Shown here piece by piece: positions 32,297 through 50,432 of a DNA stretch of 54,345 nt. A program made the translations under genes and the position numbers. Each line of letters begins with the position of its first letter. Position 1 is the stretch's first letter. The DNA is from a bacterium (GTDB lineage: Bacteria > Patescibacteriota > Microgenomatia > Daviesbacterales > UBA10151). Below the pieces are notes generated by a model. That model worked only from the letters and a program-made list of their open reading frames with translations, was not told where the DNA came from and searched no databases. The DNA lies in contig JAJYNW010000003.1 of assembly GCA_021786105.1 (NCBI GenBank), forward strand, positions 1 to 54,345, read 5' to 3'.

Positions 32297-32362
32297 CGCT
32301 GGCAGGCTCAGGAAAAGGCAGGTGGGGAAACCTATCTGCTGACAGCCTGTAAACCTGCCAGC
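32297..32362 (+). ncRNA. Candidate cis-regulatory structured RNA, copy 1
   Basis: 49 bp identical to 38091-38139; nested stems with GAAA tetraloop; upstream of yjbQ-like gene. Confidence 0.6.
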
Positions 32363-32409
32363 ACTTAGGAAATTATTATAGACGTAGACTATAACAAGCT
32401 TTGTTTATT

Positions 32410-32820
32410 ATGAAAAAAATTACAATTAAAACTACGAAATTGAGAGAGGTGGTAAATATTACTCCTCAAATCAGTGAACTTTTAAAAAAACACCCAGCAA
32501 AAGATGGAATGATTCATCTTTTTCTCAAACATTCAACTGCTGCCCTTACCACGGCCTATCTGGCAGAAAATTTAGATCTGGATATGATCGGAGCATTCGA
32601 AATTATGCTGCCGCATACTTTAACAGAAGCAGAAGGACATCACACCCATCGAATGGGTCATTTACCTGCTCATGTTGCTGCTTCTCTACTGGGCCCGCAT
32701 TTGGCAGTACCTGTAGAGGGAAGCAAGCTACAATTAGGTAAATTTCAATCGGTGGTTTTGGTGGAGTTAAATGGGCCAAGAGAAAGAGAAATTGTAATTG
32801 ATTATAACGGACGACCATGA
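32410..32820 (+). CDS. YjbQ/UPF0047 family protein
   Basis: HSTAAL, AHVAASLLG, LQLGKFQSV..VELNGPRER. Confidence 0.85.
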   Translation: MKKITIKTTKLREVVNITPQISELLKKHPAKDGMIHLFLKHSTAALTTAYLAENLDLDMIGAFEIMLPHTLTEAEGHHTHRMGHLPAHVAASLLGPHLAVPVEGSKLQLGKFQSVVLVELNGPREREIVIDYNGRP

Positions 32821-32829
32821 GGCAGGAAG

Positions 32830-33492
32830 ATGTATTTTAGAGACAGAGTTGAAGCCGGAAGAAAGCTTGCAAAGCTTCTTCGTCGCATTAATGGCAGAAA
32901 TACCGTCGTTTATGCCCTACCCAGAGGCGGTGTGGTAGTTGGGGCAGAAATTGCCAAAGCCATCGGCGCTCCTCTTGATTTAATCATTACCAGAAAAATC
33001 GGTCACCCCTTTAACCCGGAATATGCCATAGGAGCTACAGCTGAAAACGGTCACTCGGTTTTTAACAAAGAGGAAATACTAGGTATTGATGAAAGTTATT
33101 TAACCTCTGAAGCAGAAAAGCAAAAACAGGAAGCAAAAAGAAGGAGAGAGGTCTATTTAGGAAAGAAACCATCCATTCCCAGTAAAGGCAAGACTGCTAT
33201 TTTAGTTGATGATGGCATAGCTACCGGTTTGACTATGAAAGCAGCTTTGACAGAACTTCAAACACATTATAATCCTACAAAAATTATTATTGCTATACCT
33301 GTTGCACCAAAGGATACGGCGGATGAGCTGGAAAAAATGGGCGCTAAAGTGCTTGCGATCATCATGGCCAAGGAATTTTTAGGCGCGATTGGAGCATATT
33401 ATCAGGACTTTTCCCCTGTTGAGGATCAAGACGTAATCAGGATTATGAAGGAGGCAGAAGGGTATGGTTATATTCCCGTTCCCCCAGTTTAA
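32830..33492 (+). CDS. Phosphoribosyltransferase-family protein (Rv0571c/Rv2030c N-domain type)
   Basis: FRDRVEAGR, LPRGGV, RKIGHP.NPEYAIGA, LVDDGIATG, YQDF. Confidence 0.88.
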   Translation: MYFRDRVEAGRKLAKLLRRINGRNTVVYALPRGGVVVGAEIAKAIGAPLDLIITRKIGHPFNPEYAIGATAENGHSVFNKEEILGIDESYLTSEAEKQKQEAKRRREVYLGKKPSIPSKGKTAILVDDGIATGLTMKAALTELQTHYNPTKIIIAIPVAPKDTADELEKMGAKVLAIIMAKEFLGAIGAYYQDFSPVEDQDVIRIMKEAEGYGYIPVPPV

Positions 33493-34420
33493 ACAGTATG
33501 TCCAGTTTTTAAAAAGTCTGCCTGAGTACAAATTAGGGAGTTTTCAAGCTGCCCGTTTCCCTAATCAGGAAATTTATACTAAGCTTTTTACCAATGTCAC
33601 ACATAAAGATTGCTTAATCATTGGCTCAATCACTCCTCCTGACGAGCAACTGATGTCTTTTCTTTTTCTGGCCCACACTATAAAGAAAGAATTGGCCTCA
33701 AGTATTACTGCGCTGCTGCCATACTTGGCTTATGCCAGGCAAGACAAGATTAAAAAAGGAGAAAGTTTGGCCACCTCAACTATTGGAGAGATTTTTAGGG
33801 CTTCACATATCAATGAGGTAACCACCATTGATGTGCATAGCCCAAAAGTAGAAATCTTGTTTCCTCTACCGATCCATAATTTATCTCCTGCTAAACTCTT
33901 TGCCAAAGAGATTAAAAAACTAAAACTTAAAAATCCTACTTTTGTTTCTCCTGATGAAGGCGCAATAGAGAGAACTCAAAAAGTTATAGATGAGTTGAGA
34001 ATAAAAACTGAAATAGCTTACATGTCAAAAGAAAGAACTCAGCGTGGAGTTACTTCAACTCTGCACGGCCAGATAGGCCTCGAGGTGATTGTGATCGATG
34101 ATATTTTAGATACAGGCAGAACTTTACTTGCTTGTTGTCAAATTCTGAAACATGCCGGAACTAAAAATATTTATATCTTTGTTACTCACGGGCTTTTTAC
34201 TGGTAATGAATGGCAAAATCTATTTGATCTAAATGTCAAAAAAATCTACTGTACCGACTCCATTCCCCAAGTTTATGGATTAAAGATTCAAAATCTGCAG
34301 ATACTTTCCATAGAACCTCTGCTCTATGAATATGCTCATCACACAAGAAAAATTCACGAGGAAGCAGAAAAGGTAATGAGAGGAGAGCAAGATTATTTCT
34401 TAGGAGAGGAGACGGGTTAA
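33464..34420 (+). CDS. prs: Ribose-phosphate diphosphokinase (divergent)
   Basis: RFPNQE, PYLAYARQDK, DVHS, SPDEGA, IDDILDTG.T, THG. Confidence 0.85.
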   Translation: MVIFPFPQFKQYVQFLKSLPEYKLGSFQAARFPNQEIYTKLFTNVTHKDCLIIGSITPPDEQLMSFLFLAHTIKKELASSITALLPYLAYARQDKIKKGESLATSTIGEIFRASHINEVTTIDVHSPKVEILFPLPIHNLSPAKLFAKEIKKLKLKNPTFVSPDEGAIERTQKVIDELRIKTEIAYMSKERTQRGVTSTLHGQIGLEVIVIDDILDTGRTLLACCQILKHAGTKNIYIFVTHGLFTGNEWQNLFDLNVKKIYCTDSIPQVYGLKIQNLQILSIEPLLYEYAHHTRKIHEEAEKVMRGEQDYFLGEETG

Positions 34421-34434
34421 AAAATTTATCAAAT

Positions 34435-35439
34435 ATGAAAATTCTCTTTGTTGGAGATGTTATGCTAGGTAGGGGTGTTAATGCAATTTTAAAGCATAAC
34501 CCTCTTGACTATCCTTGGGGGGATACGCTTAATATTTTCCAAAATGCTGATTTAAGAATTTGTAACCTTGAATGCGTCATTTCTGATATTGGTGAACCAC
34601 AGCCGGGTAAAACATTTCATTTTCGGACAGATCCCAAAAACGTTGAGGTTTTAAAAATTGCCCGCTTTTCTCCCATATCCATAGCCAATAACCATACCTT
34701 GGATTTTGGTACCCAAGCTTTAGAACAAATGACAAATACTCTCAAAAAAACTTCAATAAATTTTGCCGGTGCTGGAGAGAATATTGTCGAAGCTTCAATG
34801 CCAGCCTTAGAAAATGGAGAGAGAAATTATGTCGGGATGATTGCTTTTACTGATAATAAACCGTGGGACTATTTTCCTTCTGAAAATGAATCTGACTGGG
34901 CAGCCGGAGACAACACACCCGGAATTTTTTATGTACCCATTGACCTCAAAGACCACCGAACCAAAGTGCTTTTTGATAATATTAAAAAGGTCAGGGATGA
35001 TGTAAAAGTTTTGATCGTTTCCGCCCACTGGGGCCCTAATTGGGGCTATGAAGTTCCAAAAGAACATATTGTCTTTGCCCATGCCTTGATTGAAGCAGGC
35101 GTAGATATCATCTATGGGCATTCAGCCCATATTTTCAGAGGCATTGAAATTTACAAAGGTAAACCAATACTTTATTCCACAGGAAATTTTGTTGATGATT
35201 ATGCGGTAGATAAAATAGAACGGAACGATGAATCCTTTATATTTGAGATTAACACGGATGAAAAGTACAGATTAACACAGATAAAACTTTACCCTACAGT
35301 TATCAGAAATCTTCAAGCAAAAATGGCAGAAGGATTAGAAGCCCAAAGAATCGCTTTAAAAATGCAAGATCTATGCACAAAGCTGCAGACTAAAAGCAAC
35401 TTGCTACCAGAAGAAAGGGTATTACAGGTAAGTTTTTGA
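34435..35439 (+). CDS. CapA-family metallophosphoesterase
   Basis: GDVMLGR, NLEC, ANNHTLDFG, HWG, GHSAH, YSTGNF. Confidence 0.88.
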   Translation: MKILFVGDVMLGRGVNAILKHNPLDYPWGDTLNIFQNADLRICNLECVISDIGEPQPGKTFHFRTDPKNVEVLKIARFSPISIANNHTLDFGTQALEQMTNTLKKTSINFAGAGENIVEASMPALENGERNYVGMIAFTDNKPWDYFPSENESDWAAGDNTPGIFYVPIDLKDHRTKVLFDNIKKVRDDVKVLIVSAHWGPNWGYEVPKEHIVFAHALIEAGVDIIYGHSAHIFRGIEIYKGKPILYSTGNFVDDYAVDKIERNDESFIFEINTDEKYRLTQIKLYPTVIRNLQAKMAEGLEAQRIALKMQDLCTKLQTKSNLLPEERVLQVSF

Positions 35440-35442
35440 AAC

Positions 35443-36840
35443 ATGTTTACCAAAAACGACCTTAAACAAATTAAACCTTTCCTGTGGGAAATCCCTAAAA
35501 CGTTTAGACAAAACATGAATGTTCCGGCCAGAATATTTGCTTCTGAAAAGATACTTTCCGACATTTTTAAGGATAAATCTTTGTTACAACTGGTTAATGT
35601 TGCCACTCTTCCAGGAATCCAGAAAGCAGCATATGCCATGCCTGATATTCATGAAGGATATGCCTTCCCCATTGGTGGAGTAGCTGCCACTTTGTATCCT
35701 GATGGAGTTATCTCCCCTGGAGGAATTGGTTATGACATAAATTGTGGAGTCAGACTTTTGAAAACTGCTCTTACAAAAGAGGTTTTAAATCATCATCAGG
35801 GGTTATTAGCAAGGAGATTATTTGAGGAGATTCCTTCGGGAATCAAACCTAGCAGAAGATTAAAACTAGATGGAAAACAGCTGGAAAAAATATTAGAAAA
35901 AGGCGCTGCTTGGGGGATAGAACAAGGATATGGCCAAGGTGATGATTTAAATTTTTTAGAATCTCGGGGTTATTTGGAAAATGCAGATCCGGAATCAGTC
36001 TCAGAAATTGCCAAAGCAAGAGGGAGGAATCAATTGGGAACACTTGGCTCAGGAAACCATTTTGTCGAGGTAGACCAGGTGGAAGAAATTTTTGATGATA
36101 GTATTGCCCGGCAATTTGGTTTATTTCAAAACCAGGTAGTTGTATTAATTCATACCGGCTCAAGAGGTTTAGGCCATCAGGTTGCTACTGATAATATTAA
36201 AATTATGCTTAACTCGCTTGCTAAATACCACATTCCTTTGCCAGATAGAGAATTAGCCTGCGCTCCCTTATCTTCGGAGGAAGGCAGTAATTACTTTAAT
36301 GTCATGGCAGCGGCAGCCAATTTTGCCTGGGCAAACAGACAGTTGATTGCTTGGGAAGTAAGAAAAGTTTTTAAAGAAATGTTCGATGGAAATTTAATTA
36401 CTCTTTATGATGTAGCCCACAATATTGCCAAAATTGAAGAGCATGAAATTGAAGGCCAAATAAAAAAAGTGATCATTCACCGCAAAGGCGCGACCAGGGC
36501 TTTTGACGGACAACCGGTGATTATTCCCGGCAGCATGGGTTCTGCTTCGTATGTTTTAGTCGGCACTAAAGAGGCAATGAAAGAGGCTTTTGGGTCCAGT
36601 TGCCATGGTGCGGGCAGAAGAATGTCCCGGCATGCTGCTTTAAAAGAAGTTCAAGGTAAAAAGTTAAAGGTAGATTTAGAAGCCCAGGGAATATTTATTC
36701 AATCAGGCTCAATTAAAGGTTTAGCTGAAGAAGCGCCGCTTGCTTATAAAGACATTCATGAGGTGGTTGATATAGTTGTTGGTGCTCAGATTGCAAAAAA
36801 AGTCGCCAAACTTAAACCAATGGTAGTTATAAAAGGATAA
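35443..36840 (+). CDS. rtcB: RtcB RNA ligase
   Basis: MPDIHEGY, GYDINCG, GSGNHF, HTGSRG, HN, HRKGAT, SSCHGAGR. Confidence 0.95.
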   Translation: MFTKNDLKQIKPFLWEIPKTFRQNMNVPARIFASEKILSDIFKDKSLLQLVNVATLPGIQKAAYAMPDIHEGYAFPIGGVAATLYPDGVISPGGIGYDINCGVRLLKTALTKEVLNHHQGLLARRLFEEIPSGIKPSRRLKLDGKQLEKILEKGAAWGIEQGYGQGDDLNFLESRGYLENADPESVSEIAKARGRNQLGTLGSGNHFVEVDQVEEIFDDSIARQFGLFQNQVVVLIHTGSRGLGHQVATDNIKIMLNSLAKYHIPLPDRELACAPLSSEEGSNYFNVMAAAANFAWANRQLIAWEVRKVFKEMFDGNLITLYDVAHNIAKIEEHEIEGQIKKVIIHRKGATRAFDGQPVIIPGSMGSASYVLVGTKEAMKEAFGSSCHGAGRRMSRHAALKEVQGKKLKVDLEAQGIFIQSGSIKGLAEEAPLAYKDIHEVVDIVVGAQIAKKVAKLKPMVVIKG

Positions 36841-36841
36841 T

Positions 36842-37498
36842 TCAAAAGTATTTCTGAAACCATTCAACTGCATAACCTGCCACGTCTTCTAATGCGCCCG
36901 GTTCTTCAAAAAGATGGGTGGCACCAGGGATAATAACTAATTCCTTGTTTTTAGCATTGGTAAGTCTGCTTAAAGCTTGGTTATTTAAATCAATAACTTC
37001 ATAATCTTCTCCTCCTACCAGTAACATGATTGGGGCTTTGACCCGGCCTAAGGCCTCGCCTGCCAGATCAGGCCTGCCTCCTCTTGAGACTATTGCCTCA
37101 ATTCTTTCAGGTAGCTGGGCAGCTGCTACTATGGCTGCTGCTGCACCTGTTGAGGCTCCAAAATAACCTACTTTAAGGTGTTTTGTTTTAGGATTTAGAT
37201 TGACAAAGTGTGTAGCGTAAATCAGGCGGCCTGCTAGAAGGTCAATATTAAAACGATGTTCCCGGGTAATTTCATCTTCTTTTTCTTCCTCTTCTGTTAA
37301 TAAATCTACTAATAGTGTGGCAATAGCTGCCTTGTTGAGTTCTGAAGCCACAAATTTATTTCTCGGGCTGAACCTGCCGCTACCGCTGCCATGAGCAAAG
37401 ATAACAATCCCCTGAGCCTTCTTAGGAACAGCTAAATTTCCTTTGATCGGCACTTCTTCAGCATTAATGTCAACTTCCTGATTTAAACTTTTATCCAT
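36842..37498 (-). CDS. Dienelactone hydrolase-like alpha/beta hydrolase
   Basis: FAHGSGS.R.SPRN, GYFGASTG, SRGGRPDL, HLFEE. Confidence 0.88.
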   Translation of the reverse strand: MDKSLNQEVDINAEEVPIKGNLAVPKKAQGIVIFAHGSGSGRFSPRNKFVASELNKAAIATLLVDLLTEEEEKEDEITREHRFNIDLLAGRLIYATHFVNLNPKTKHLKVGYFGASTGAAAAIVAAAQLPERIEAIVSRGGRPDLAGEALGRVKAPIMLLVGGEDYEVIDLNNQALSRLTNAKNKELVIIPGATHLFEEPGALEDVAGYAVEWFQKYF

Positions 37499-37502
37499 TC
37501 CC

Positions 37503-37919
37503 CTACCTACTCTTCATTCTTTGACCTACCTGACCCTCTTTTCGTCCCGGTGGCACAACTTCAATGTTGCTGATCACATCTTTAACTCCTGAACTCCAAA
37601 AGGCATCTGAATAAGATAAAGGTTTTGATCTTGGGTTCTTGACTGTACCTGATAAAGTCACTATTCCGTCTTTTACATCTATTGCGATGTTATTTGCATC
37701 AGACGAAGAAATAAATGGATTTGCTTGAATATTATCTCTGACAATATCAGCAATTTCTTCATCATCTAAAATGAAGTTATTGTTATAATCATAAAGATCC
37801 AAGTCCGTCCACCCATACGGTGCTCCCCACCAAAAGGGGTTCCCTCCCCCATACGGTCCGGGACAACCTCCCATCGTCATTGGGCCTCTACCCATCACTG
37901 GTCCATATCCATTTGGCAT
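37503..37919 (-). CDS. BON-domain protein with Gly/Pro/Met/Tyr-rich N-terminus
   Basis: DEEIADIV...IDVKDGIVTLSGTV...GVKDVISNI; strong SD AGGAGGTG. Confidence 0.8.
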   Translation of the reverse strand: MPNGYGPVMGRGPMTMGGCPGPYGGGNPFWWGAPYGWTDLDLYDYNNNFILDDEEIADIVRDNIQANPFISSSDANNIAIDVKDGIVTLSGTVKNPRSKPLSYSDAFWSSGVKDVISNIEVVPPGRKEGQVGQRMKSR

Positions 37920-38090
37920 AAAATCACCTCCTTCTACATTTAATCTAATTTTTATCCTAGCAGTCAGATTTAAGTTAAGGAGTAGAATAGGGTAAGAATT
38001 GTGAAAGATAAAGTAACTTTACCCAATCCTTACATCTTTCATATATTTTTCATATTTTGTTTTGCCGAAACTTATGTATACTAATAATCA

Positions 38091-38148
38091 CGCTGGCAGG
38101 CTCAGGAAAAGGCAGGTGGGGAAACCTATCTGCTGACAGTCTGCCAGC
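38091..38148 (+). ncRNA. Candidate cis-regulatory structured RNA, copy 2
   Basis: 11-bp outer stem, 9-bp inner stem with GAAA loop; starts 8 nt after TATACT (38077-38082) and ends 14 nt before the ATG. Confidence 0.6.
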
Positions 38149-38162
38149 AGTTAAATTCCGGC

Positions 38163-38891
38163 ATGAAAATCATTTTTCTTGGCACAGGGGCAAGCGGCGG
38201 TACTCCGGGAACAGATAAATCTCTTCGGCTAGAAAGCTCTCTTCTTATTAAAAACAAGCTAAATATTTTAATTGATGTAACCAGAAATTTTGTTGAACAA
38301 TCCAAAAAGATAGATAAAACTGATGACATCCTTCTAACTCACGGCCACCAAGATGCCTGTGGCGGAATTAATCAACTACGGAGTTGGTGGCAATCAAAAA
38401 ATCTTCCACCCATTCCGGTTTTTGCTCACCGGAAGGTGATTACCCGAATCCAAAAAAAATTCAAACAACTAGATCATTGTAAATTCATTGAAATCAAAGA
38501 TCACCAAAGTTTTAATTTAGGTCAATCCAAGATCACTGCTTGCCAAGTACCTCATACAAAAGATAAAAACTTCCCTACCTTTGCCTGGAAGATACAAGAT
38601 CAAAAAATCGTGATTTACGCCTCGGATATAGCTATTCCGACAACGAAATTCAAAAACTTTTGCAAAGATGCGAATCTTTTAATAATTGATGGTGCTACCT
38701 GGAAAAGAAAAATTTTTACCCATCTTAGGATAGATCAGGATTTACCTAAAATTTGCCAATGGCCGGTTAATAAAATAATTCTCACCCAAATCGGTAAATC
38801 GGTACCGCCTCACGAAAAGTTTACGATGGAGGTTGCCAAAATTTGTCCCAAGGCAATACCTGCCTATGATGGAATAGTAATACCACTATAA
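38163..38891 (+). CDS. Metallo-beta-lactamase-fold hydrolase (PhnP-like)
   Basis: FLGTGASGG, LID, THGHQDA, PH, YASD, H, AYDG. Confidence 0.82.
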   Translation: MKIIFLGTGASGGTPGTDKSLRLESSLLIKNKLNILIDVTRNFVEQSKKIDKTDDILLTHGHQDACGGINQLRSWWQSKNLPPIPVFAHRKVITRIQKKFKQLDHCKFIEIKDHQSFNLGQSKITACQVPHTKDKNFPTFAWKIQDQKIVIYASDIAIPTTKFKNFCKDANLLIIDGATWKRKIFTHLRIDQDLPKICQWPVNKIILTQIGKSVPPHEKFTMEVAKICPKAIPAYDGIVIPL

Positions 38892-39749
38892 TCCTTTATC
38901 GTTAGCTGTTTGTTTTCGTCTTTCCGGTTCAGGTGAATACGGCACCGGGATATACTGCACTGACGGACGCCGTCCGGAAGATTGAGGATACAGCTCCATC
39001 AGCTGATAAATCTCCCCTGGCAAACCGACCTGGACCGGCAGGCCAATTCTTTTGGCAATCTCATAATCTATCGGGTAATCATGAGTCCACTGGCCCGAAC
39101 TCAACAAATTAGCTATTTCCACAGCCCTTTCTTTTTTCATGTTATTACCGACCAAAATATCCACTATCGCCTCGCAAACCTGTTTTAACCCTTTCTTGGC
39201 TACATCCGCCAAAACGAGAGTTTTGTCATCAATATTTTTCATCGGCTTTTGCTTTAAAACATTCAGCAAAGAAACTGCTGGATACTCCCCGATTTGCGGA
39301 TCCAGCGGCGATAATACGGCATTTTCATCCATCACAATCTCATCCCCGGCAAAAGCAATTAAACTACCGCCAGACATAGCATAATGCGGAATAAAAATTG
39401 TGACTTTTGCTTGATGTTTAATCAAAGCTTTGGCTATTTGCTCAGATGCCAACACCAACCCTCCCGGAGTGTGAACAATCATATCGATTGGGGTATCAAC
39501 CGGGGTCAACCTTATAGCCCTTAGAATACTCTCCGAATCCTCAATATCAATAAAGCGGGAAAAAGGCAAACCTAAAAAAGAAAATACCTCTTGCCGGTGA
39601 ATTAACACTATCACCCGGCTTTTTCTTTTCTGCTCTAATTGTTTTATTAAACTAAATCTTTGGAATTCCAAGTATCTGTATTGCAATATTGGCACTATAG
39701 TGAAAATAAAAAATAATATGAATAACAAATCAATAATGGAAATATTCAT
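38886..39749 (-). CDS. Membrane-anchored SDH-family ClpP-fold serine protease
   Basis: IHRQE, HTPGG, PHYAMSGG.LIA, PLDPQ, WTHDYPI. Confidence 0.88.
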   Translation of the reverse strand: MNISIIDLLFILFFIFTIVPILQYRYLEFQRFSLIKQLEQKRKSRVIVLIHRQEVFSFLGLPFSRFIDIEDSESILRAIRLTPVDTPIDMIVHTPGGLVLASEQIAKALIKHQAKVTIFIPHYAMSGGSLIAFAGDEIVMDENAVLSPLDPQIGEYPAVSLLNVLKQKPMKNIDDKTLVLADVAKKGLKQVCEAIVDILVGNNMKKERAVEIANLLSSGQWTHDYPIDYEIAKRIGLPVQVGLPGEIYQLMELYPQSSGRRPSVQYIPVPYSPEPERRKQTANDKGL

Positions 39750-41146: not shown

Positions 41147-41162
41147 TAATTGTTAAATTATT

Positions 41163-41873: not shown

Positions 41874-42294
41874 AAAAATATATTCAACTGATTTAGGGAT
41901 TGATCTTGAGTCTAAAGAAGAAAACGAGTTATTTAAATGGTTTTTGGCCTGTCTTTTGTTCGGTAGACCAATCCAACAAGGAGTGGCCAAAAAAACATAT
42001 TTTGAATTTATTAAGGAAAGTTTAACTTCTCCGGAGGCAATTTTACAAGCCGGTTGGGATAAATTAGTTAAAATTTTAGATAGAGGACACTATATCCGGT
42101 ATGATTACTCAACCGCCACCAAATTATTAGAAGTTTGCCAAACCCTCAAAGAAAAATACGGTACCCTGGCGAATCTAATAAACACCTCACAAAACTTCAA
42201 AGATTTACAAAACCGTTTGCTGGAATTTAAAGGCATTGGCCCGGTTACTACGGAGATTCTCTTACGGGATTTGAAACTACACAAAGTGATTTAA
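41851..42294 (+). CDS. Small helix-hairpin-helix (HhH-GPD-like) protein
   Basis: LFKWFLACLLFG.PI, Y.RYD..TA, FKGIGPVT HhH motif. Confidence 0.7.
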   Translation: MIKKAPSKKIYSTDLGIDLESKEENELFKWFLACLLFGRPIQQGVAKKTYFEFIKESLTSPEAILQAGWDKLVKILDRGHYIRYDYSTATKLLEVCQTLKEKYGTLANLINTSQNFKDLQNRLLEFKGIGPVTTEILLRDLKLHKVI

Positions 42295-42488: not shown

Positions 42489-43688
42489 TCAAGCCCTCTG
42501 TTGGCCCATGTCTATTACTAATCCACCCCAGGTAAAGTTTTGAGCTCCTAAACCTTCTCCTATAAAAGGGTTAAAATATTCACGGAACCCTGATTTTTGG
42601 ATTAAGGCAACGGAGGATTTTTTAATTTCTTCTGCTACATCACTAAAGCCATAATTTAGTAAACCTTTATAAATGAACCAATTAGCCCCTACCCAAGTTG
42701 GCCCTCTCCAAAAACCGGAAGGATCAAAAGATGGTTCATCTAGAGAGGTAGTGGGGACCGGAAAATTTGTCCAAAATTCATTTTTATTAAGCAAGTGATC
42801 GTCAACTAATTTTTTTGCCTCTCCCTGAGTGATAATTTTAGCATAAAGCGGGGCAAAAATAGCCCAAGTTTTAACTTTAATTTTTTTATAATTCTCTCCA
42901 TAAGTAGACCAAAAAATATCATCTTCCAGCATGAACTCTCTCATGGCTAAGGATATAGCCTCTGCCTCTTTTGCAAAATAATCAGCATCTTCATCCTGGT
43001 CTATCTTCTTGGCAATTTCGGCAAGCAGTTTTAGGTTTGTCACCATAATGGAGTTAAAGGGTACGTCTTTAACCCAGAAAAAATTTCTCATGCAAAACGG
43101 AGCATCAAAGTGACACTCTATATTTTGCTTAACCAGCCTAAGCCGCTGTTCGGTGTTTGCTTTCAGTGTTTGTTTTACCGGCAAATTCAAAGGCAAATCA
43201 AACCTGGGGGAATTATCTTCGCCTGACTCATCAGGATTCATAATGCCGATTAGGTGTTTTTCGTGAGGATCACGTTCAATCAGTAGATACTTGTAGAAGT
43301 GATATAAATGGGGATACACCGATTTCAAAAAAATTATGTCTTTGTCTATTTGAAATATTTGCCAAACTGCATAAGCTAACATCGGAGGTTGGGTAATGGT
43401 GCTGGTGCCGTCCTTGCCCCAACTGATCCTGGGAAAATTTGTTTTGTTTGTTTTATCCCAATAAATCATGTGCGGGATCATGCCATTTTGGAATTGTCTG
43501 AACAGAATGGAAAAGATCTCCTTTTTGGCGGATATTAAATCAAAATGACTTAAGATAATTGAGTGAAAACAGGAATCCCAAAACCACTGATACGGATAGG
43601 TGGCAGGAGCAGGAACAGTATATTGGAATTTCCCCTTTAACCGCCGGTTGGCTATAAATAATTGCCTGCAGGCGAGGTTGAGATTCAT
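42489..43688 (-). CDS. GH63/MGH1-like glycoside hydrolase (trehalase-like)
   Basis: YPYQWFWDS, TQPP, ESGEDNSPRFD, FWRGPTW, EYFNP. Confidence 0.85.
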   Translation of the reverse strand: MNLNLACRQLFIANRRLKGKFQYTVPAPATYPYQWFWDSCFHSIILSHFDLISAKKEIFSILFRQFQNGMIPHMIYWDKTNKTNFPRISWGKDGTSTITQPPMLAYAVWQIFQIDKDIIFLKSVYPHLYHFYKYLLIERDPHEKHLIGIMNPDESGEDNSPRFDLPLNLPVKQTLKANTEQRLRLVKQNIECHFDAPFCMRNFFWVKDVPFNSIMVTNLKLLAEIAKKIDQDEDADYFAKEAEAISLAMREFMLEDDIFWSTYGENYKKIKVKTWAIFAPLYAKIITQGEAKKLVDDHLLNKNEFWTNFPVPTTSLDEPSFDPSGFWRGPTWVGANWFIYKGLLNYGFSDVAEEIKKSSVALIQKSGFREYFNPFIGEGLGAQNFTWGGLVIDMGQQRA

Positions 43689-43696
43689 ACACTAAA

Positions 43697-44881
43697 TTAT
43701 TCCAAATGCGTTTTAAAGAAATCAACGGTAGTTTTGACAATTGACTCCAAACTTGGGTCAATCACGGCGCCCTCCGGGTTTGGTTCAAACCCGTGGTTGG
43801 CATTTTTAACAATCAGAAACTGCGCGTTGTCATTTTCCGACTTGAGTTTATCATAAAGAGTGGCAGCTTCTGCCGCCGGAGTAAGTGTATCTTTATCTCC
43901 CTGGACTATTAAGAAAGGCGGCTCATTTGCTGTTACATAATTAACGGGCCTGGCCTCATGCATTATGGCCGGATCAAAATTGTAAATCATGGTCATCATC
44001 TCACTGATCGGATAGTCCTTGTTGTCAAATGGGTTATGCCAGCCTCCCGGGGTATGCTGCACGATTATACGGGCAATCGGTGACTCCGGCAGGTCACCTA
44101 TGTAGTAACCAGCTACGGCGTTTGGTTTGGTGGGGATTTTTAGATACTGCTCGTAGGTTAAATTAGCCCCGGCGATTTGGACACTGGGGGAATTCTCCCA
44201 ACTCTCCACTCCGCTGGTTGCACCCACCAGTGCGCTTAACTGTCCACCGACGCTGTCGCCAAAAACGCCGATTTTATTTTGGTCGACGCCGATGCCATAG
44301 GAGTAATACTTTAAAAACCTGACACCGCATAAAACATCCTGGATCATGGCAGGGTATTTATATTGGGGTGCCAGCTGATAATTTACTGATGCCACGATAA
44401 AACCATTTTCTACCAGGCCAACTATTACTTTAGCCGGGGCTGTATCTATCTCTGCTTTATCTCCGGCAAGCATCCCACCGCCATGAATATATACTACCAT
44501 CGGTCTGACGCTGCCGGGCTTGAGTGGTTGATTAGCATATAGATCCAGTAGTAGTTTTTGGTCTCCGGAGCTGCAGTAGATGACATCCTGGACCTTATAC
44601 ATACTTTTAGTTTCAGCAGCGGCAGAGGTGTCCTCGTTGCGAATTTGAAAGTCTGTTTCTTTCCAATTAAGGGGAAGGCTATTTTTATAGTCAGTAGTTT
44701 CATATTTTAGTGCACTGTTGGGGTTGGTATTTGTTTGGGATGGTATAGAAGCTTTGAAAATCATTCTCCTATCCGGTGGAGCAAAGAGGTCCTGAAAGAT
44801 AAAAAGCATTATCAAAAGAATTATTACTCCGGGAATAAGTAGAAGCTTGATAAAACCCTGGCTGTTAGATATTTTGGACAT
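43697..44881 (-). CDS. Exported alpha/beta hydrolase (esterase)
   Basis: HGGG oxyanion motif, GDSVGG, GDKD, NHGF; N-terminal QGF followed by a hydrophobic stretch. Confidence 0.85.
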   Translation of the reverse strand: MSKISNSQGFIKLLLIPGVIILLIMLFIFQDLFAPPDRRMIFKASIPSQTNTNPNSALKYETTDYKNSLPLNWKETDFQIRNEDTSAAAETKSMYKVQDVIYCSSGDQKLLLDLYANQPLKPGSVRPMVVYIHGGGMLAGDKAEIDTAPAKVIVGLVENGFIVASVNYQLAPQYKYPAMIQDVLCGVRFLKYYSYGIGVDQNKIGVFGDSVGGQLSALVGATSGVESWENSPSVQIAGANLTYEQYLKIPTKPNAVAGYYIGDLPESPIARIIVQHTPGGWHNPFDNKDYPISEMMTMIYNFDPAIMHEARPVNYVTANEPPFLIVQGDKDTLTPAAEAATLYDKLKSENDNAQFLIVKNANHGFEPNPEGAVIDPSLESIVKTTVDFFKTHLE

Positions 44882-44997: not shown

Positions 44998-47394
44998 TTA
45001 GTTTGGCAGAAGCTGTATCTTCCTAGCTTTCAGGGCAGCCTTGTCTGCTAACCGTTTTTGCAAATCCTTCATTAGTTCACTAATCTGCATCCAGAAAAAT
45101 GCCCAAACCCAGGCAATAATTATCCAGACAAGGGGGACTTTAGCAGGCATTAAAAAGCCTGTGAAGGCAAAAAGGGTGGCGACTAGCTGAGTCAAAGAGG
45201 TAGCCCAGATAACCTCTTTGCTTGGTAGGAACTTGAACCATCTTTCTTTGGTATGGGCTACATAAATTAACATATGCCCGGAAACGGTTAACTTCAGAAA
45301 ATAAATGGTTTGGATCAGTTCCCAATTAAGATGAAGAATATTTTGCATGATAAAAAATAATAATAAGCTATTAATAACTCCTGTCATTCCATAAAGAGAG
45401 CTTAAAATAAACCGCTGCCTCACATTTATCTTGGCCGGATAGGAGACTGTTTTCACCTTGTCAAAAGCTAGAGAAATGATAGGAATATCGTTTAACAAAG
45501 CCACAATAATAATCTGTAGAGCAGTTAGCGGATAAACTCTATAAAGTAAACCCAGTATGACAATTGTCATAATTAAACGGTAGCTTTCCGAAATACGGTA
45601 TAGAGAATAGGTGTAAAGCCGCTCAAAAATTTTTCTGCTTTCAATAATGGCATCACGGATGACTTCAATACCCTCCGAAAGCAAGACTATATCCGCCGTG
45701 GCTTTCAAGGCTGTAACGGCATTTTTGACGGCCAGGCCCACACTGGCTGCTTTAACTGCCGGTAAATCATTAACCCCGTCTCCGTTTACGGCAACGGTAA
45801 AAAATTCCTTGGCTTTTTGTACCAGTCTAAACTTATCTTCCGGCAAGATTTCGGCAAAGGCGCCTGTTTTGGTATAAAAAGTTGGTTGTAAGTTATCCCA
45901 GTTTAACTTATCCAGTTCTTCTTTGGTAATAATTTTTCCATCATCAAGAGATAACTGGCGAGCAATTTGGGAAGCGATCGCCCGGTTATCACCGGTGACC
46001 ATGGTTACATTGATACCATTATTTTCCAAAAACTGGACCGCTGATTTAGCATCTTCCCGCAGGGTATCAGATAGAGCCAAAAGTCCCACTATCTTCATAT
46101 CTTTTTCCGTTGGAGTGTTAGAAGAAATGGCAACAGCTAGAGTTCTATATCCATTTTGAGCCAATGTCTCTACTTCACGGGAAAATTTTGCTTTTGTTTC
46201 CTTATTAAAATTGCATAGCTTTTCAATTACCTGAGGAGCACCAGAGGTGATTGCCATCTGTTGGCCGGCAGTTTCGATGGTAATGGTACTCCGTTTTCTT
46301 TCCGAATCGGCAGGAATGAAATCAATTTTGGAAAATGCTGGAGGTGAGATTTGGAGTGAATGTGTTTTTTCCAGAATGGCCTGGTCAATGGAATTATTGT
46401 CATCTGAGAAGGCAGCAATTGAGGCATACTTTAGGACATTGTTGTAGGTAAACTCATCATAGGCATAAATATCAGCAACGGTAATTTTGTTCTGAGTTAA
46501 CGTTCCGGTTTTATCGGTTAATAAAAGATTTACATTGGATAAATCCTCCAAAGCCGACAGTCGCCTAACAATAACATCCTTCTTGGCCAGATTTAAAACA
46601 CCAAACTCAATAATCAAGGTCATTACGGTCGGCAAACTAATGGGGATACCGGCAATCACTAAACTTAAATCCAGTGTTAAAAGTTCCAGCAGGGGAACTT
46701 TTTGCAGAATGAAAATAATACTGAGAATTACAACCGCCACAGCGCTTAATATTGTTAGGAATTTAGAAATGCTTAAAATATCTTTTTCCAGTAAACTTTC
46801 TCTTCTGATTCTTTCCACTCCAAAGATGGTTTTACCAAAATTAGTATTCCTGCCGGTGGCAGTGAGTTTGATAACGGCAATACCGGCTACCAGGAATGAG
46901 CCAGAATAAACTGCGTCATGCAATTTTTTATCTTTAGGGAGAGATTCTCCGGTCAATGCGGCCTCATTAACAGAAACATGATTTGCCTCAACAATTTCTC
47001 CATCAGCCGGGATAATTTCCCCTGCAGAAAGCTGGATAATGTCGCCTGGAACAAGCAAGCGGGAATCAACGATATGCCAGATTTGATCCCGAAACACCCT
47101 AATCTTTTGGGCTAGATGCTCGTTTAATTTTTTAATAGCATTATCCGCTTTATTTTCCTGCCATAGGGATATGCCAATATTGAAAATAAGTAAGGAGAGG
47201 ATAAAGTTAAAATCAAAAATTTTGCGAGTAGCTAAAGACAAAAGGGCAGCAGCAAGAAGCATCAAAGAGATAGGAGAAATAACCTTTTTTGTCAGTTTCT
47301 CAAAAATAGAAGGTTGTTTCTCAGGGACTTCATTGGAACCTACAGCTTTGAACTTTTCCTCTGCTTCTTTGGTAGTAAGGCCGGAATATTCCAT
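44998..47394 (-). CDS. P3A-type (plasma-membrane H+-ATPase-like) P-type ATPase
   Basis: LTGESLP, GIPISLP, DKTGTLT, TGD, GDGVND, ALLND (conserved M6 Asp). Confidence 0.85.
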   Translation of the reverse strand: MEYSGLTTKEAEEKFKAVGSNEVPEKQPSIFEKLTKKVISPISLMLLAAALLSLATRKIFDFNFILSLLIFNIGISLWQENKADNAIKKLNEHLAQKIRVFRDQIWHIVDSRLLVPGDIIQLSAGEIIPADGEIVEANHVSVNEAALTGESLPKDKKLHDAVYSGSFLVAGIAVIKLTATGRNTNFGKTIFGVERIRRESLLEKDILSISKFLTILSAVAVVILSIIFILQKVPLLELLTLDLSLVIAGIPISLPTVMTLIIEFGVLNLAKKDVIVRRLSALEDLSNVNLLLTDKTGTLTQNKITVADIYAYDEFTYNNVLKYASIAAFSDDNNSIDQAILEKTHSLQISPPAFSKIDFIPADSERKRSTITIETAGQQMAITSGAPQVIEKLCNFNKETKAKFSREVETLAQNGYRTLAVAISSNTPTEKDMKIVGLLALSDTLREDAKSAVQFLENNGINVTMVTGDNRAIASQIARQLSLDDGKIITKEELDKLNWDNLQPTFYTKTGAFAEILPEDKFRLVQKAKEFFTVAVNGDGVNDLPAVKAASVGLAVKNAVTALKATADIVLLSEGIEVIRDAIIESRKIFERLYTYSLYRISESYRLIMTIVILGLLYRVYPLTALQIIIVALLNDIPIISLAFDKVKTVSYPAKINVRQRFILSSLYGMTGVINSLLLFFIMQNILHLNWELIQTIYFLKLTVSGHMLIYVAHTKERWFKFLPSKEVIWATSLTQLVATLFAFTGFLMPAKVPLVWIIIAWVWAFFWMQISELMKDLQKRLADKAALKARKIQLLPN

Positions 47395-47408
47395 AAATGG
47401 GCAGTCAT

Positions 47409-48194
47409 TTAAGTATATACCAATAACCACTCAAGAAACTTAAAAACTTCTTTTGTATCTTTCAAACGATACCTAGCAAACGATTTACTCCTTTTGCCAA
47501 CCTTTATGGTGATCTCATTTTTAAGTTTTTTAAAAACGTCCTCATCAGTTACATCGTCACCAATATAAATAACAATTGGCGCTGCTTTTGTTTTTATGTG
47601 TATTACATTAACTATCAGTTTTGCAAAAGCACCTTTGCTCCAGACAACTTTAGGCCGGATATCAAACACCATCTTTCCTGAAACAGCAGAGATTAATTCA
47701 TTTTCAATAAAGGGTTTTAACATTTCCTTAAATAGTGATTTGATTGAGGGAATTTGATCTTTTTCCGCCATTCTGTAATGAAAAGCTAATACCGATTCTT
47801 TATCTTCAACAAAAACCCCGGTAAATTGGCTAGCTATTTTATCCAGCTGCACATGGATCTTTTCTAAAGCTTTTAAGGCCCTGTTTGGAATAGGGAAGGA
47901 ATATTTTTTTCCGGAGATTTCTCCTTCCAATCCATGATTGCCACCATAGATAATATTAGGCAATCTAACCTTTTCTTTAACATCCTCAAGCTTCCTGCCG
48001 CTGATAATTGCCAGATAAAAACCGGGCTTTTGACAAAAATTCTTTAACATGCTTCTGGTTTTTATTGACAATCGGGCTTTTTCCGGAGACTTAACAATCG
48101 GGGCTAAAGTTCCGTCAAAATCCAGCAATAAAGCTTTTGTGGGGTTATTTTGCAGTTGGGTAGTTATTTTGTCTAAATTTTTCCATAAATTCAT
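47409..48194 (-). CDS. otsB: Trehalose-6-phosphate phosphatase
   Basis: LLDFDGTL, ISGR, GNHGLE, HYR, KG, GDDVTDED. Confidence 0.92.
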   Translation of the reverse strand: MNLWKNLDKITTQLQNNPTKALLLDFDGTLAPIVKSPEKARLSIKTRSMLKNFCQKPGFYLAIISGRKLEDVKEKVRLPNIIYGGNHGLEGEISGKKYSFPIPNRALKALEKIHVQLDKIASQFTGVFVEDKESVLAFHYRMAEKDQIPSIKSLFKEMLKPFIENELISAVSGKMVFDIRPKVVWSKGAFAKLIVNVIHIKTKAAPIVIYIGDDVTDEDVFKKLKNEITIKVGKRSKSFARYRLKDTKEVFKFLEWLLVYT

Positions 48195-48197
48195 CGC

Positions 48198-50432
48198 TTA
48201 TCCTAAATTCACTATAGTTTTCAATAGTTCTGCTGACCAGCGGTAGACATTATAATTTTTGATTGTTTCTCTCATGTTCCTCATTCTTTTTACCTGTTCC
48301 TTTGGTGTCATTTCCAAAGCATTTTTTATAGCACCTGCTGCCTGTTCTCCATTATACGGATTCACAATCAAAGCATCTTTAAGCTCTCTTGAGGCACCAG
48401 TATATTGACTTAAAATCAAAACTCCTTTTTCATCAAACCTTGAGGCCACATATTCTTTTGCCACCAGATTCATCCCATCGTGTAAAGATGTTACTAGACA
48501 AAAATCTGCTGTTCTATAAAATTTTTGGATTTCAGTGTGGCTATGGTGTTTTGCTAATAGCACTATTGGCTTCCAATCTTTTGCCTTAAATAAGTTATTG
48601 ATTCTTTCCACTTCCTTTTCTACTTCAAGTGCAAAATCCCGATATTTTTTAACTTTGGTCCTACTTGGGGCAGCAATTTGAATAAAAGTAAAATTATCCT
48701 GATAAGAGGGATTATTATTAAGAAAAATTTCGATCGCCTTAAATCGCTCCAGTATTCCTTTAGTATAATCCAGTCGGTCAATCCCCAACCCAATATATTT
48801 TGTTTTAATTCCTAAACTCTTTAACAATTTTTCTTTTTCATCTTTATCAATTCCATCTTTTGCTTTATCAAAACCATTGGGAAAAGAAATACTAATAGGG
48901 AAAGGCTTAATATAGGAAACATGGCCATTTTTGGTAATGGTAAAGCGCTCGAAATCTATCATCGACTCAAGCTCTCTGCCCACTGTTTCGATAAAGTTAT
49001 TACAGTGAAGCTGAGTATGAAATCCCAAAAGATCTGCTCCTAACATACCATCCAGAACTTCTTTCTTCCAAGGACATATACTAAAAGATTCTGGATTGGG
49101 CCAGGGAATATGCCAGAAAATTCCTACGACAGCCCCCGGTCTTTGCGCCTTGACCATTCTGGGAACTAAAGCCAGATGAAAATCCTGAATCAAAATAACA
49201 GGTCTATCCTGGTTTTTGATTTCGAAAAGAATTGTATCGGCAAACTTTTGATTAACTTTTTTATATTCTTCCCAATCTTCCTTTCGGAAAATCGGCCTGT
49301 TGTGGGCAATATGGCAAAGCGGCCATAATCCCTCATTGGAAAAGCCGTAATAATAACCCGCCTCTTCCTCCTCAGTTAACCAGACACGCTTTAAGGTGTA
49401 TTTTGGTTCATCCGGCGGAACTTTAATTTTGTTTTGCCGGTCAACTACCAACTTATCAGCATCTCCGCTTCCGCTGGCAATCCACATTCCGCCGCAAGCC
49501 TGCATTACCGGTTCAATAGCTGTTGCCATTCCGCTGGCTGGAAAATAAAACTCAAGCTTTCCGCCGTTTTTTGTGTGAATATAAGGTTCACGGTTAGATA
49601 CCATAAAGATCGTTCTTCCCTTTAAAATATCTTTGATGAATTCTTTTAACCTTTCCGCCGTCCAAGGGGAATCTAATTTCTCTAAACGTAACCGGGCTTC
49701 TTCGCTGGCTGAAATTCTAGCCTCCATTAAACTGCTTCTTATTTTAGCAATCTCTTTAACCAAAGGTCTAAACAAGAAAGAACTTGTTACACCTTTAAGA
49801 TTTTGTTCAGCCCTTCCCATTCTTGCTAATTTTAATGTTTCAACCAATCCCCGGATAGGCTGATAGATAATCCAGCGTATTAGCAAGAGTACAGCAAAAG
49901 ACAATAAAGATGCCTGTATGAGGAGTCTAATCAGATTATTTTTCCAGATTTCGGTTAAACGATCATCAATATATCCGGCATTTTGCACCACCATCAGAGC
50001 CCCCACCACACTTTTATCATCATGCAAAGGTACCGCCAGAAGATAAACCTTTTTATTACCAACTTTTTCAAAGTCTCCGTTTGCCTTATCCGCATCCATG
50101 GCATCAGCAACTATCTGAGCAGCGGCTGAAGTTGCTTCAGGGGTGATAAAAGAAGTCGCAATTACTTGATTTTTATTATCATAGATTCCCAAACCAGCAA
50201 ATCTTTTTTTATCAGTAAATCTCTCCACTACACTTTGTAAATATTTTTCTGATTTATTAATAAAGTTTGGTTCAACTGTTTCTTTAAGGCTTTCAACAAG
50301 CAGTGTTGAACGGTATTGTAAATCAGACTGAAGCCTTTGTTCTTCCTGTTCAACTTGATTAACTGTAAAAGCAATTACAATTAAACTAATTATAGTTACT
50401 ATCACAAAGAGCGCTACAGCAACCTGTTTCAT
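48198..50432 (-). CDS. otsA: Trehalose-6-phosphate synthase with N-terminal two-TM extracytoplasmic sensor/HAMP-like module
   Basis: VSNREP, LWPLCH, QDFH, FWHIPWP, DRLDYTKG, DGMNLVAKE; ~270-aa N-terminal TM-loop-TM extension. Confidence 0.9.
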   Translation of the reverse strand: MKQVAVALFVIVTIISLIVIAFTVNQVEQEEQRLQSDLQYRSTLLVESLKETVEPNFINKSEKYLQSVVERFTDKKRFAGLGIYDNKNQVIATSFITPEATSAAAQIVADAMDADKANGDFEKVGNKKVYLLAVPLHDDKSVVGALMVVQNAGYIDDRLTEIWKNNLIRLLIQASLLSFAVLLLIRWIIYQPIRGLVETLKLARMGRAEQNLKGVTSSFLFRPLVKEIAKIRSSLMEARISASEEARLRLEKLDSPWTAERLKEFIKDILKGRTIFMVSNREPYIHTKNGGKLEFYFPASGMATAIEPVMQACGGMWIASGSGDADKLVVDRQNKIKVPPDEPKYTLKRVWLTEEEEAGYYYGFSNEGLWPLCHIAHNRPIFRKEDWEEYKKVNQKFADTILFEIKNQDRPVILIQDFHLALVPRMVKAQRPGAVVGIFWHIPWPNPESFSICPWKKEVLDGMLGADLLGFHTQLHCNNFIETVGRELESMIDFERFTITKNGHVSYIKPFPISISFPNGFDKAKDGIDKDEKEKLLKSLGIKTKYIGLGIDRLDYTKGILERFKAIEIFLNNNPSYQDNFTFIQIAAPSRTKVKKYRDFALEVEKEVERINNLFKAKDWKPIVLLAKHHSHTEIQKFYRTADFCLVTSLHDGMNLVAKEYVASRFDEKGVLILSQYTGASRELKDALIVNPYNGEQAAGAIKNALEMTPKEQVKRMRNMRETIKNYNVYRWSAELLKTIVNLG

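Follow-up and report, generated by a model that had tools for sequence, protein, structure and literature searches.

Introduction

Balon-type ribosome hibernation was first described in 2024 by Helena-Bueno et al. (PMC10901736), who reported that Balon genes adjoin genes for RaiA, RtcB and OsmY and who mention a conserved EF-Tu-binding hairpin of Balon. Neighbourhoods of baeRF and HPF genes were described by Burroughs and Aravind in 2019 (PMC6514570), together with a baeRF-1 family in which the N domain is retained and the C-terminal Pelota domain lost. Here we describe a locus related to both, a cluster of 18 open reading frames (ORFs) between 32.3 and 50.4 kb of contig JAJYNW010000003.1 (assembly GCA_021786105.1), from a Daviesbacterales bacterium of the Candidate Phyla Radiation (CPR). 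We call the cluster the island, and the window is the whole stretch of DNA analysed, which is the complete 54,345-base contig. The assembly comprises 1,037,274 bases in 26 contigs and is 92% complete, and the NCBI names on close homologues of the window proteins are Candidatus Daviesbacteria, Curtissbacteria, Levybacteria or Microgenomates.

A third point of comparison is the DosR regulon of Mycobacterium tuberculosis, which a first interpretation made from the DNA letters (hereafter the sequence-only reading) had proposed that the island mirrors. In that regulon Rv0574c is CapA-like, Rv0571c has a DLH part, ctpF is Rv1997 and encodes a type II pump, otsB1 is Rv2006, and universal stress proteins (USP) are the most numerous family. 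The regulon is arranged in nine blocks that include Rv0079 (RafH), Rv0571c (a putative phosphoribosyltransferase, PRTase) and Rv2631 (RtcB), with Rv0574c given as pyroglutamate synthase-like and as a modulator of cell-wall poly-glutamine (PMC5309233); the blocks cited by the sequence-only reading are as listed there. Rv2030c joins a phosphoribosyltransferase (PRT) domain to the erythromycin-esterase superfamily (PMC4410610), and Rv2629 and Rv0079 act as hibernation factors (PMC10901736).

With the Balon-RaiA(-RtcB) operons the island shares a protein with the aeRF1-like fold of an A-site factor, an HPF/RaiA neighbour, and RtcB and OsmY/BON genes nearby. It differs in that its Balon-type protein is short and divergent, with an N and an M domain only, and in that it adds an SDH protease and a PRT-Prs-DLH set that go unmentioned in the PMC10901736 passages on these operons. 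With baeRF-1 family 10 it shares a match to PF18854 above cut-off, an operonic HPF gene and a conserved Gln; the PMC6514570 passages on baeRF-HPF neighbourhoods name no PRTase, DLH, CapA or SDH protease, and the terms 'phosphoribosyl' and 'SDH' do not occur in the main text. The link between Balon, HPF and RtcB is thus already published. We found no description of such an island in CPR in the published literature, where the supplementary tables of the Balon and baeRF papers may hold some; 'Patescibacteria' does not occur in the main text of PMC10901736, whose supplementary operon tables may list such loci.

We consider it probable that the island is an accessory, lineage-variable stress-survival neighbourhood of this CPR bacterium of about 1 Mb, with a core of ribosome-hibernation and RNA-repair genes. 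The genes of the left part, about 10 kb (32.3-42.3 kb), form a coherent though loose module, and the right part, about 8 kb, is mostly a local neighbour that is loosely tied to it.

Results

Organization of the island

The gene cluster is real. The ORFs of the 17 gene families named in the sequence-only reading are in place at the coordinates it gave, and Pfam or NCBIfam backs all of the listed families except an HhH protein; an esterase gene of the BD-FAE family at 43697-44881 had been overlooked. The hibernation pair, RtcB, CapA and the trehalose pathway are present as claimed, and the genome is indeed reduced (1.04 Mb). Six transcription units were deduced from strand and spacing:

Unit (i), forward strand: YjbQ-PRT-Prs-CapA-RtcB
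Unit (ii), reverse strand: BON-DLH1
Unit (iii), forward strand: MBL
Unit (iv), reverse strand: HPF-like, Balon-type and SDH protease genes, with overlaps of 4 nucleotides (nt)
Unit (v), forward strand: DLH2 and a protein of 147 amino acids (aa)
Unit (vi), reverse strand: OtsA-OtsB-ATPase, then, after a 116-nt gap, esterase and GH63

The putative hibernation operon

Unit (iv) encodes the two proteins that give the core its predicted function and a protease:

40501-40914, reverse strand: divergent HPF/RaiA-fold protein, 137 aa (Pfam PF02482 S30AE, 24.5 bits, cut-off 23.7)
39746-40504, reverse strand: Balon-type factor, 252 aa (PF18854 baeRF_family10, E 6e-19; 69.2 bits, gathering cut-off 27.1)
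38886-39749, reverse strand: SDH ClpP-fold serine protease with an N-terminal membrane helix (Pfam 8e-116; NF047768 402.7 bits, cut-off 250)

The HPF-like and Balon-type genes overlap by 4 nt, as do the stop of the Balon-type gene and the start of the SDH protease gene, and a counterpart of the protease with 65% identity adjoins a baeRF gene in metagenome locus L112. In a search of the whole genome PF18854 scored 70.5 bits. Searches of the PDB with phmmer were uninformative for both of the first two proteins, giving no match for the Balon-type protein and matches at E 0.5 at best for the HPF-like protein, and structure and profile searches were therefore needed.

An AlphaFold2 (AF2) model of the Balon-type protein was built from an alignment of 52 homologues (pLDDT 87.6), and its top structural matches are ribosome-bound Balon homologues. 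The best is Msmeg1130 (Z 17.3, root-mean-square deviation (rmsd) 2.9 A, 236 aligned residues); Balon of P. urativorans matches with Z 15.8 and Rv2629 with Z 14.3. Proteins of the eRF1/aRF1 type reach similar Z with an rmsd of 7.6-14 A. Identity to the solved Balon homologues is about 10-14%, and the 52-sequence profile matches Msmeg1130 with E 8.9e-4. Residues 1-252 of the model superpose on residues 13-268 of the 362 in the Msmeg1130 chain. The model covers the N and M regions only of the 362-aa Balon chains, so that the protein consists of these two domains in the Balon arrangement, with the C-terminal third missing. The loop of the M domain has VPQ in place of GGQ. Its Gln (Q148) is invariant in the 52 sequences and aligns with the APQ of Msmeg1130, and thus is by itself no argument for catalysis. 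The 120 best among 268 relatives range from 185 to 384 aa, most being 236-290 aa, and all have PF18854; the named members among these 120 are all CPR.

The AF2 model of the HPF-like protein (pLDDT 90.3) has a beta-alpha-beta-beta-beta-alpha topology. Its Foldseek list is headed by a RaiA that accompanies Balon, followed by HPF, YfiA, MPY and RafH; the first 30-odd matches are all to HPF, RaiA, YfiA, MPY or RafH, with an rmsd of 2.1 A for E. coli HPF. The structure models thus agree with the aeRF1-like and HPF-like calls of the sequence-only reading. No NCBIfam model matches the HPF-like protein, and an exhaustive phmmer search of 1.84 billion representatives returned 75 relatives at E <= 1e-3. 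Two long representatives of HPF-like proteins (P0265, P0307) suggested a fusion of HPF with baeRF; this was rejected, as a BLASTP comparison of P0265 with the baeRF protein gave no match.

The HPF-like gene is the sole S30AE-type gene detected in the genome. None of the other 18 genomes of the genus has a PF02482 match above cut-off (1/19 with the genome of the window), and the S30AE-like genes found across the 19 genomes are the divergent island copies only. With no canonical HPF detected in the 18 other genomes, ribosome-hibernation factors look accessory in this genus.

The PRTase, Prs-like and DLH proteins

Four genes of the left part encode three kinds of protein that belong together by their homologues:

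32830-33492, forward strand: PRTase of the TT1426 type (PF00156 1e-16; PDB 1WD5, TT1426, 5.7e-45)
33464-34420, forward strand: Prs-like ribose-phosphate diphosphokinase paralogue (Pribosyltran_N 4e-18; TIGR01251 220.6 bits, cut-off 113)
36842-37498, reverse strand: DLH1, alpha/beta hydrolase of the PRTase-associated subfamily (Pfam DLH 3e-9)
41163-41873, forward strand: DLH2, alpha/beta hydrolase of the same subfamily (Pfam DLH 8e-8; PDB 2O2G 5e-61)

The Prs-like gene overlaps the PRTase gene by 29 nt, and a separate Prs of the housekeeping type, with 25% identity to the Prs-like protein, is encoded on contig C6. DLH1 and DLH2 are 53% identical, and the motifs of both agree with the DLH consensus of fused PRT-DLH proteins. 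Long homologues of the PRTase numbered 3,740 at E <= 1e-5, and their architectures were counted in the best 120 listed: the PRTase is fused to Prs domains in 59, to a DLH or other alpha/beta-hydrolase domain in 30 and to an erythromycin esterase in 20, the remaining 11 having the PRTase alone or another architecture. One homologue, P0008, is a PRT-Prs-DLH triple fusion with a DLH portion 60% identical to DLH2. The DosR-regulated PRTase fusions are of the same architecture class as those seen among the long homologues, which bears out the parallel drawn by the sequence-only reading between the PRTase plus DLH of the island and those proteins. A frameshifted PRT-Prs fusion was also considered and set aside, the linker of the homologues being about 25 aa and the ORF overlap here 29 nt, with no clear sign of a frameshift.

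The closest solved relative of the PRTase is TT1426 of T. thermophilus (PDB 1WD5), and that of DLH2 is PDB 2O2G, both of them structural-genomics entries without known function. The deposited names, 'hypothetical protein TT1426' and 'Dienelactone hydrolase', give no function; the island links the two families to each other and to Prs.

Recurrence of the genes in relatives and metagenomes

The Balon-type gene is present in 6 of the 18 other congeners; beyond the genus, a second genus of the family has it in 1 genome, and it was not found in 16 genomes that represent other families of the class. All six baeRF-bearing congeners have the HPF-like gene beside the baeRF gene, with varying subsets of DLH, YjbQ, PRT, Prs-like, CapA, MBL, GH63 and OtsA genes. 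Gene remnants are seen as well, of the Prs-like gene in G015 and of the SDH and MBL genes in G012. The island is patchy and eroding within the genus and is not conserved as a unit: its content differs in every congener, and the right half is seldom linked to the hibernation half elsewhere. What does recur is the left half, whose genes are found together in CPR contigs; the conservation of the neighbourhood, which the sequence-only reading had proposed to check, holds for these genes and fails for the island as a whole.

A survey anchored on baeRF genes covered 80 metagenome loci, 32 of them at least 8 kb long. Among these 32, a PRT gene was found in 8, YjbQ and Prs-like genes in 4 each, and DLH in 3. 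The HPF-like gene, sought by profile, adjoins the Balon-type gene in 23 of the 80 loci, a count limited by the shortness of many of them. Locus L120 has PRT-DLH-RtcB-HPF-baeRF, contiguous and co-directional, at 6375-10705, and L112 has a near-complete set (YjbQ-PRT-Prs-DLH..CapA..RtcB plus baeRF-SDH). A PRT gene lies immediately 5' of a short baeRF with the M domain only (~140 aa) in L134, L136 and L141. The arrangement baeRF-GH63-OtsA-OtsB was seen once, in a distant lineage (L187, 10001-16608).

A second survey, anchored on the PRTase, used 80 loci of many phyla, kept from 587 confirmed ones, in which the island genes were sought by tblastn. DLH genes of the same subfamily (41-60% identity; 50-60% for copies of DLH2), adjoining or fused to the PRTase, occur in 28 of the 80. 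Prs-like genes occur in 9, a P-type ATPase in 7 (at low identity), RtcB in 5, CapA, Hsp20 and DUF2267 in 4 each, USP in 3 and a Balon-type gene in 2; PlsY, YjbQ, GH63 and OtsA occur in none. Archease was found three times among 104 ORFs scanned near loci bearing RtcB or CapA.

A duplicated leader and other candidate regulatory elements

Candidate RNA leaders and a palindrome had been pointed out in the sequence-only reading, and all are real. The elements are:

32298-32362, forward strand: leader copy A, 65 nt, just 5' of the YjbQ-PRT-Prs-CapA-RtcB operon (minimum free energy (MFE) -42.2 kcal/mol)
38092-38148, forward strand: leader copy B, 57 nt, 5' of the MBL gene (MFE -36.1 kcal/mol)
38013-38085, forward strand: promoter-like block ..CTTTACCCAATCCTTAC..TTTCATATTTTGTTTTG..TGTATACT, which precedes leader copy B
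41119-41146, no strand assigned: perfect inverted repeat (13+13), 17 nt 5' of the DLH2 start

The leader folds into a stem P1 (GCUGGCAGG/CCUGCCAGC), internal loops and a P2 hairpin with a GAAA loop. Copies A and B have an identical 33-nt core, for which there were 0 matches in 100 shuffles, and the element occurs twice in the genome, both times within the island. It is also found before YjbQ in G015 and G009, where the P2 pairing is kept despite changes; over the four copies 40 of 40 cells are paired, with 1 compensatory pair and 2 one-sided changes. As the same structured 5' leader stands before the YjbQ-PRT-Prs-CapA-RtcB and MBL units, the two are probably controlled together. The MBL gene of G015 is a member of the YjbQ-PRT operon, which has the same leader at its head; this fits an MBL gene that here kept leader control on separation from the operon. 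The description of the module as co-regulated is borne out only insofar as 2 of about 6 units have a leader and promoter block in common. Rfam has no family at the leader (best E 0.16, snoRNA noise), its sole match in the window being tRNA-Gln.

The same promoter-like block is found between the HPF-like and DLH/YjbQ genes in five congeners (G012, G010, G014, G009 and G006). The palindrome is unique in the window at <= 3 mismatches, and a related, partly kept sequence is at the same place in G015. A second inverted repeat, with 12-nt arms 27 nt apart, lies at 41020-41070 in the HPF-like/DLH2 spacer, 5' of the perfect one. A shared operator was sought and rejected: the other intergenic spacers have no 9-mer in common, and the palindrome has no second copy. 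Scans for promoters and terminators gave no excess over shuffles (55 vs 49.8 and 18 vs 19.3, respectively).

Other genes of the left part

The remaining genes of the left part are:

32401-32820, forward strand: UPF0047/YjbQ (PF01894 6e-25; TIGR00149 88.6 bits, cut-off 67.75)
34435-35439, forward strand: CapA/PGA_cap, metallophosphatase fold (PF09587 7.5e-73)
35443-36840, forward strand: RtcB RNA ligase (PF01139 2e-161, 538 bits, profile positions 1-426 of 426)
37503-37919, reverse strand: BON-domain protein with an OsmY-like domain (PF04972 1.2e-10)
38163-38891, forward strand: MBL-fold hydrolase, Lactamase_B_2 (Pfam 8e-18)
41851-42294, forward strand: 147-aa protein, possibly of the HhH type (ESM Atlas lead only)

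RtcB is long, of archaeal/eukaryal-type length, and is the sole copy found by tblastn of the genome. The CapA protein has a paralogue with 55% identity on contig C6. This paralogue lies in a second stress-like locus of the same genome, at 88-99 kb of C6 (L023 6191-16437), at the contig end, where its neighbours encode a trehalose synthase resembling TreT, a glucosidase resembling GDE, PEBP and another member (37%) of the PRTase family of the island. The 147-aa protein, called an HhH protein in the sequence-only reading, is a genuine ORF that matches no Pfam or NCBIfam family, and the name comes from a protein-language-model lead only: scores in the ESM Atlas are 0.96 to clusters of ~145 aa and 0.90-0.93 to HhH-GPD/Ogg-HhH clusters.

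The right part and the flanks

The right part holds unit (vi):

42489-43688, reverse strand: GH63/MGH1-like glycoside hydrolase (PF22422 1.2e-75)
43697-44881, reverse strand: BD-FAE/hormone-sensitive-lipase-like esterase with an N-terminal membrane helix (PF20434 5e-37)
44998-47430, reverse strand: type IIIA P-type H+-ATPase (TIGR01647 653.3 bits, cut-off 615.5)
47409-48194, reverse strand: OtsB trehalose-6-phosphate phosphatase (Pfam 3e-45; TIGR00685 168.1 bits, cut-off 68.05)
48198-50432, reverse strand: OtsA-type GT20 synthase (GT20 2.4e-118, 396 bits, residues 276-740)

TIGR01647 is the best model for the ATPase and the sole one above its cut-off. The glucosylglycerate hydrolase model gives the GH63-like protein 158 bits, below its cut-off of 550. 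With the known OtsA/OtsB pathway the island shares an OtsB above the trehalose-6-phosphate phosphatase cut-off and a strong GT20 domain; it differs in that its OtsA is below the cut-off of the OtsA equivalog TIGR02400 (429.8 bits, cut-off 564.85) and has an N-terminal extension of ~272 aa (residues 1-272) with two membrane helices and a sensor-like module resembling Cache and HAMP. Because this extension sits with sCache_3/HAMP clusters in a protein atlas (0.97, a lead only), OtsA would be a sensor-fused, 'one-component' enzyme.

At the right edge of the island is a gene for an extracytoplasmic function (ECF) sigma factor, 51099-51632 on the forward strand. It is followed, with a 4-nt overlap, by a gene for a 190-aa protein without family, possibly an anti-sigma factor (the pair spans 51099-52201, forward strand). 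The ECF sigma factor was considered as the regulator of the island and rejected; its gene was not seen in the 20-kb loci of the relatives. Farther on are a gene for a bacterial type IB topoisomerase (52254-53300, forward strand), DUF2000, tRNA-Gln (54053-54124) and the contig end. On the left the island is adjoined by a gene for a PlsY-domain protein of 338 aa (31180-32196, reverse strand), whose PlsY domain (residues 9-187) is followed by a long membrane tail. A comparison with congeners lacking baeRF gave no island boundaries: the plsY-like gene is patchy, being present in 1 of the 5 compared, and there is no synteny around plsY in G018.

Discussion

In the explanation that we favour, the core at 32.3-42.3 kb would serve ribosome hibernation and RNA repair. 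One operon would supply the HPF/RaiA-fold protein, the two-domain Balon-type factor and a membrane SDH protease; the first two would most likely sit in idle ribosomes, at the decoding site and the A site. Cleaved RNA would be rejoined by RtcB during recovery. The PRTase, a dedicated Prs-like synthase of phosphoribosyl pyrophosphate (PRPP) and the DLH hydrolases may cooperate in a PRPP-dependent reaction, a joint action that we infer because natural fusions of the three occur, with YjbQ, CapA and MBL as accompanying proteins. The leader-bearing units, YjbQ-PRT-Prs-CapA-RtcB and MBL, would be controlled together. The right half plausibly adds trehalose protection and the maintenance of pH and proton-motive force (pmf), and the whole may aid survival away from a host.

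Several observations weigh against this explanation. Three concern the identity of the two ribosome factors. The C-terminal domain is reportedly the part of Balon that contacts EF-Tu, and this domain, with its EF-Tu-binding hairpin, is absent from the 252-aa model, which ends at about residue 268-269 of the 362-aa chains. The Balon-type protein falls far short of both NCBIfam hibernation-factor models, with 26.2 bits against a cut-off of 320 for Rv2629_fam_RHF and 20.6 bits against 330 for AOC03_06830_fam_RHF. The assignment of its partner to HPF is marginal by sequence.

The others concern control and linkage. Only 2 of about 6 units have the leader, and the hibernation operon is not one of them; covariation in the leader is not significant with four copies only, the score being reached by 93 of 500 shuffles. 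When 401 genomes of the class were searched for the leader pattern, only the genome of the window and G009, both of this genus, had it, and a regular-expression search of the 80 metagenome loci found no true copy. The 7 related genomes carry mere subsets of the island. Of the 32 baeRF loci that are 8 kb or longer, 2 have RtcB and 1 each has CapA, SDH and OtsA/OtsB/GH63, with no BON, MBL, esterase or 147-aa protein gene in any (0/32). No other island gene was found by tblastn in 52 of the 80 PRT-anchored loci across phyla, and the HPF-like profile has no match in these 80. A search for RNA runs covering 32300-42290 listed none. Three metatranscriptomes of the same study matched 32300-50432 in only two pieces of 36-41 nt at 90-95% likeness, and are uninformative either way.

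The best of the alternatives is that of the sequence-only reading, in which the entire 18 kb would be one co-regulated dormancy regulon, a full mirror of the DosR regulon with an RNA or palindrome switch in place of DosRS. At the level of family or architecture there are counterparts for Rv2629, Rv0079, Rv2631, Rv0571c/Rv2030c and Rv0574c, that is for Balon, HPF, RtcB, a PRTase with a hydrolase, and CapA, and this part of the proposal stands; the PRTase belongs to a family that forms both PRT-DLH and esterase-PRT fusions. The island also has trehalose genes and a P-type ATPase, two units are under the shared leader, and baeRF, GH63, OtsA and OtsB are together in L187. The parallel breaks down at the ATPase subtype, USP and the regulator. 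The ATPase is a type IIIA H+ pump, another subtype than CtpF. USP (PF00582) has no match in the 92% complete genome, and the island shows no nitroreductase, Hsp20 or nitrate genes. The DosR genes lie in nine dispersed blocks under a two-component regulator, whereas the island is one locus without such a regulator: the window ORFs include no response regulator or GerE gene, in agreement with the sequence-only reading, which had seen no DosR/DosS homologue, and the only GerE-type helix-turn-helix in the genome is on contig C3. The likeness to Rv2629 extends to the fold (Z 14.3) and not to the family cut-off (26 vs 320 bits) or the C-terminal domain. Moreover, the right half is tied to baeRF in only 1 of the 32 loci of at least 8 kb, the palindrome is unique, the leader is on two units only and the island content is different in every congener. 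Individual mycobacterial proteins entered the comparison as PDB chains of Rv2629 and of M. smegmatis factors. We consider a full mirror improbable. In this family-level comparison the likeness to the DosR regulon lies in a shared use of widespread stress families and does not reflect a common regulon.

A chance accumulation, in which a hot spot beside plsY and the rib operon gathers unrelated accessory genes whose only functional link is the known HPF-Balon pair, would account for the patchiness of baeRF (6 of 18 congeners), the Prs-like, SDH and MBL remnants seen in relatives, the lack of synteny around plsY in G018 and the absence of the other genes from most PRT loci of other phyla. It does not account for the natural PRT-Prs, PRT-DLH and triple fusions, the contiguous PRT-DLH-RtcB-HPF-baeRF of L120, the near-complete set of L112 or the duplicated leader on two units. 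Because most of the PRTase homologues listed are fused to Prs-like or DLH domains and the same genes recur together elsewhere, the left half goes beyond chance, and we hold this explanation to be quite improbable.

The view that Burroughs and Aravind take of baeRF-1 and RtcB would make the island a response to conflict or RNA damage that answers RNase toxins or phages, with a Balon-type protein that frees or blocks damaged ribosomes, possibly as a catalyst through its invariant Gln, an RtcB that repairs the cut RNA and a PRTase effector. PMC6514570 proposes baeRF-1 proteins in such conflicts and singles out family 10 for the conserved Gln, which is invariant in our 52 sequences; there are also weak PADLOC matches of PRTases (PRTase_III-A 24 bits, ShosT 29 bits), and archease and sigma-54 activators are among the genes that adjoin RtcB in other phyla. 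We regard this as the least probable of the explanations, since PADLOC has no family for 8 of 10 proteins and only PRTase-fold matches of <= 29 bits for the PRT and Prs-like proteins, the Gln aligns with the 'APQ' of Msmeg1130, an A-site hibernation factor by cryo-EM (PMC10901736), and the HPF, BON and trehalose partners point to abiotic stress.

Returning to the accessory stress-survival neighbourhood as the preferred explanation, a bolder form of it can be put forward tentatively, though we think it unlikely: PRT-Prs-DLH could be an undescribed PRPP-dependent enzymatic arm of hibernation and RNA repair that extends from CPR to actinobacteria, where it would be represented by the DosR-induced PRTase fusions, and that in this genus would have its switch, a new riboswitch-like leader, in common with RtcB. 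One conceivable task of the trio is to phosphoribosylate or salvage nucleobases or RNA ends that become free in dormancy.

We did not find in print a Balon-type subfamily without the C domain as the sole genes of the hibernation type detected in this CPR genus, the PRT-Prs-DLH trio with its ties to Balon and RtcB loci, or the shared leader. The hibernation-type genes found in the genus travel only on a variable island, and the Balon-type protein, being without the C-terminal domain, is a natural test of whether the contact with EF-Tu is needed. The shared leader may prove to be a new, small regulatory RNA. Fusions and neighbourhoods tie three proteins without known function, the TT1426-type PRTase, the Prs-like protein and the 2O2G-type DLH, to one another and to RtcB and Balon loci. 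As the PRTase family includes the DosR-induced mycobacterial architectures, the biochemistry of the trio could explain those proteins too.

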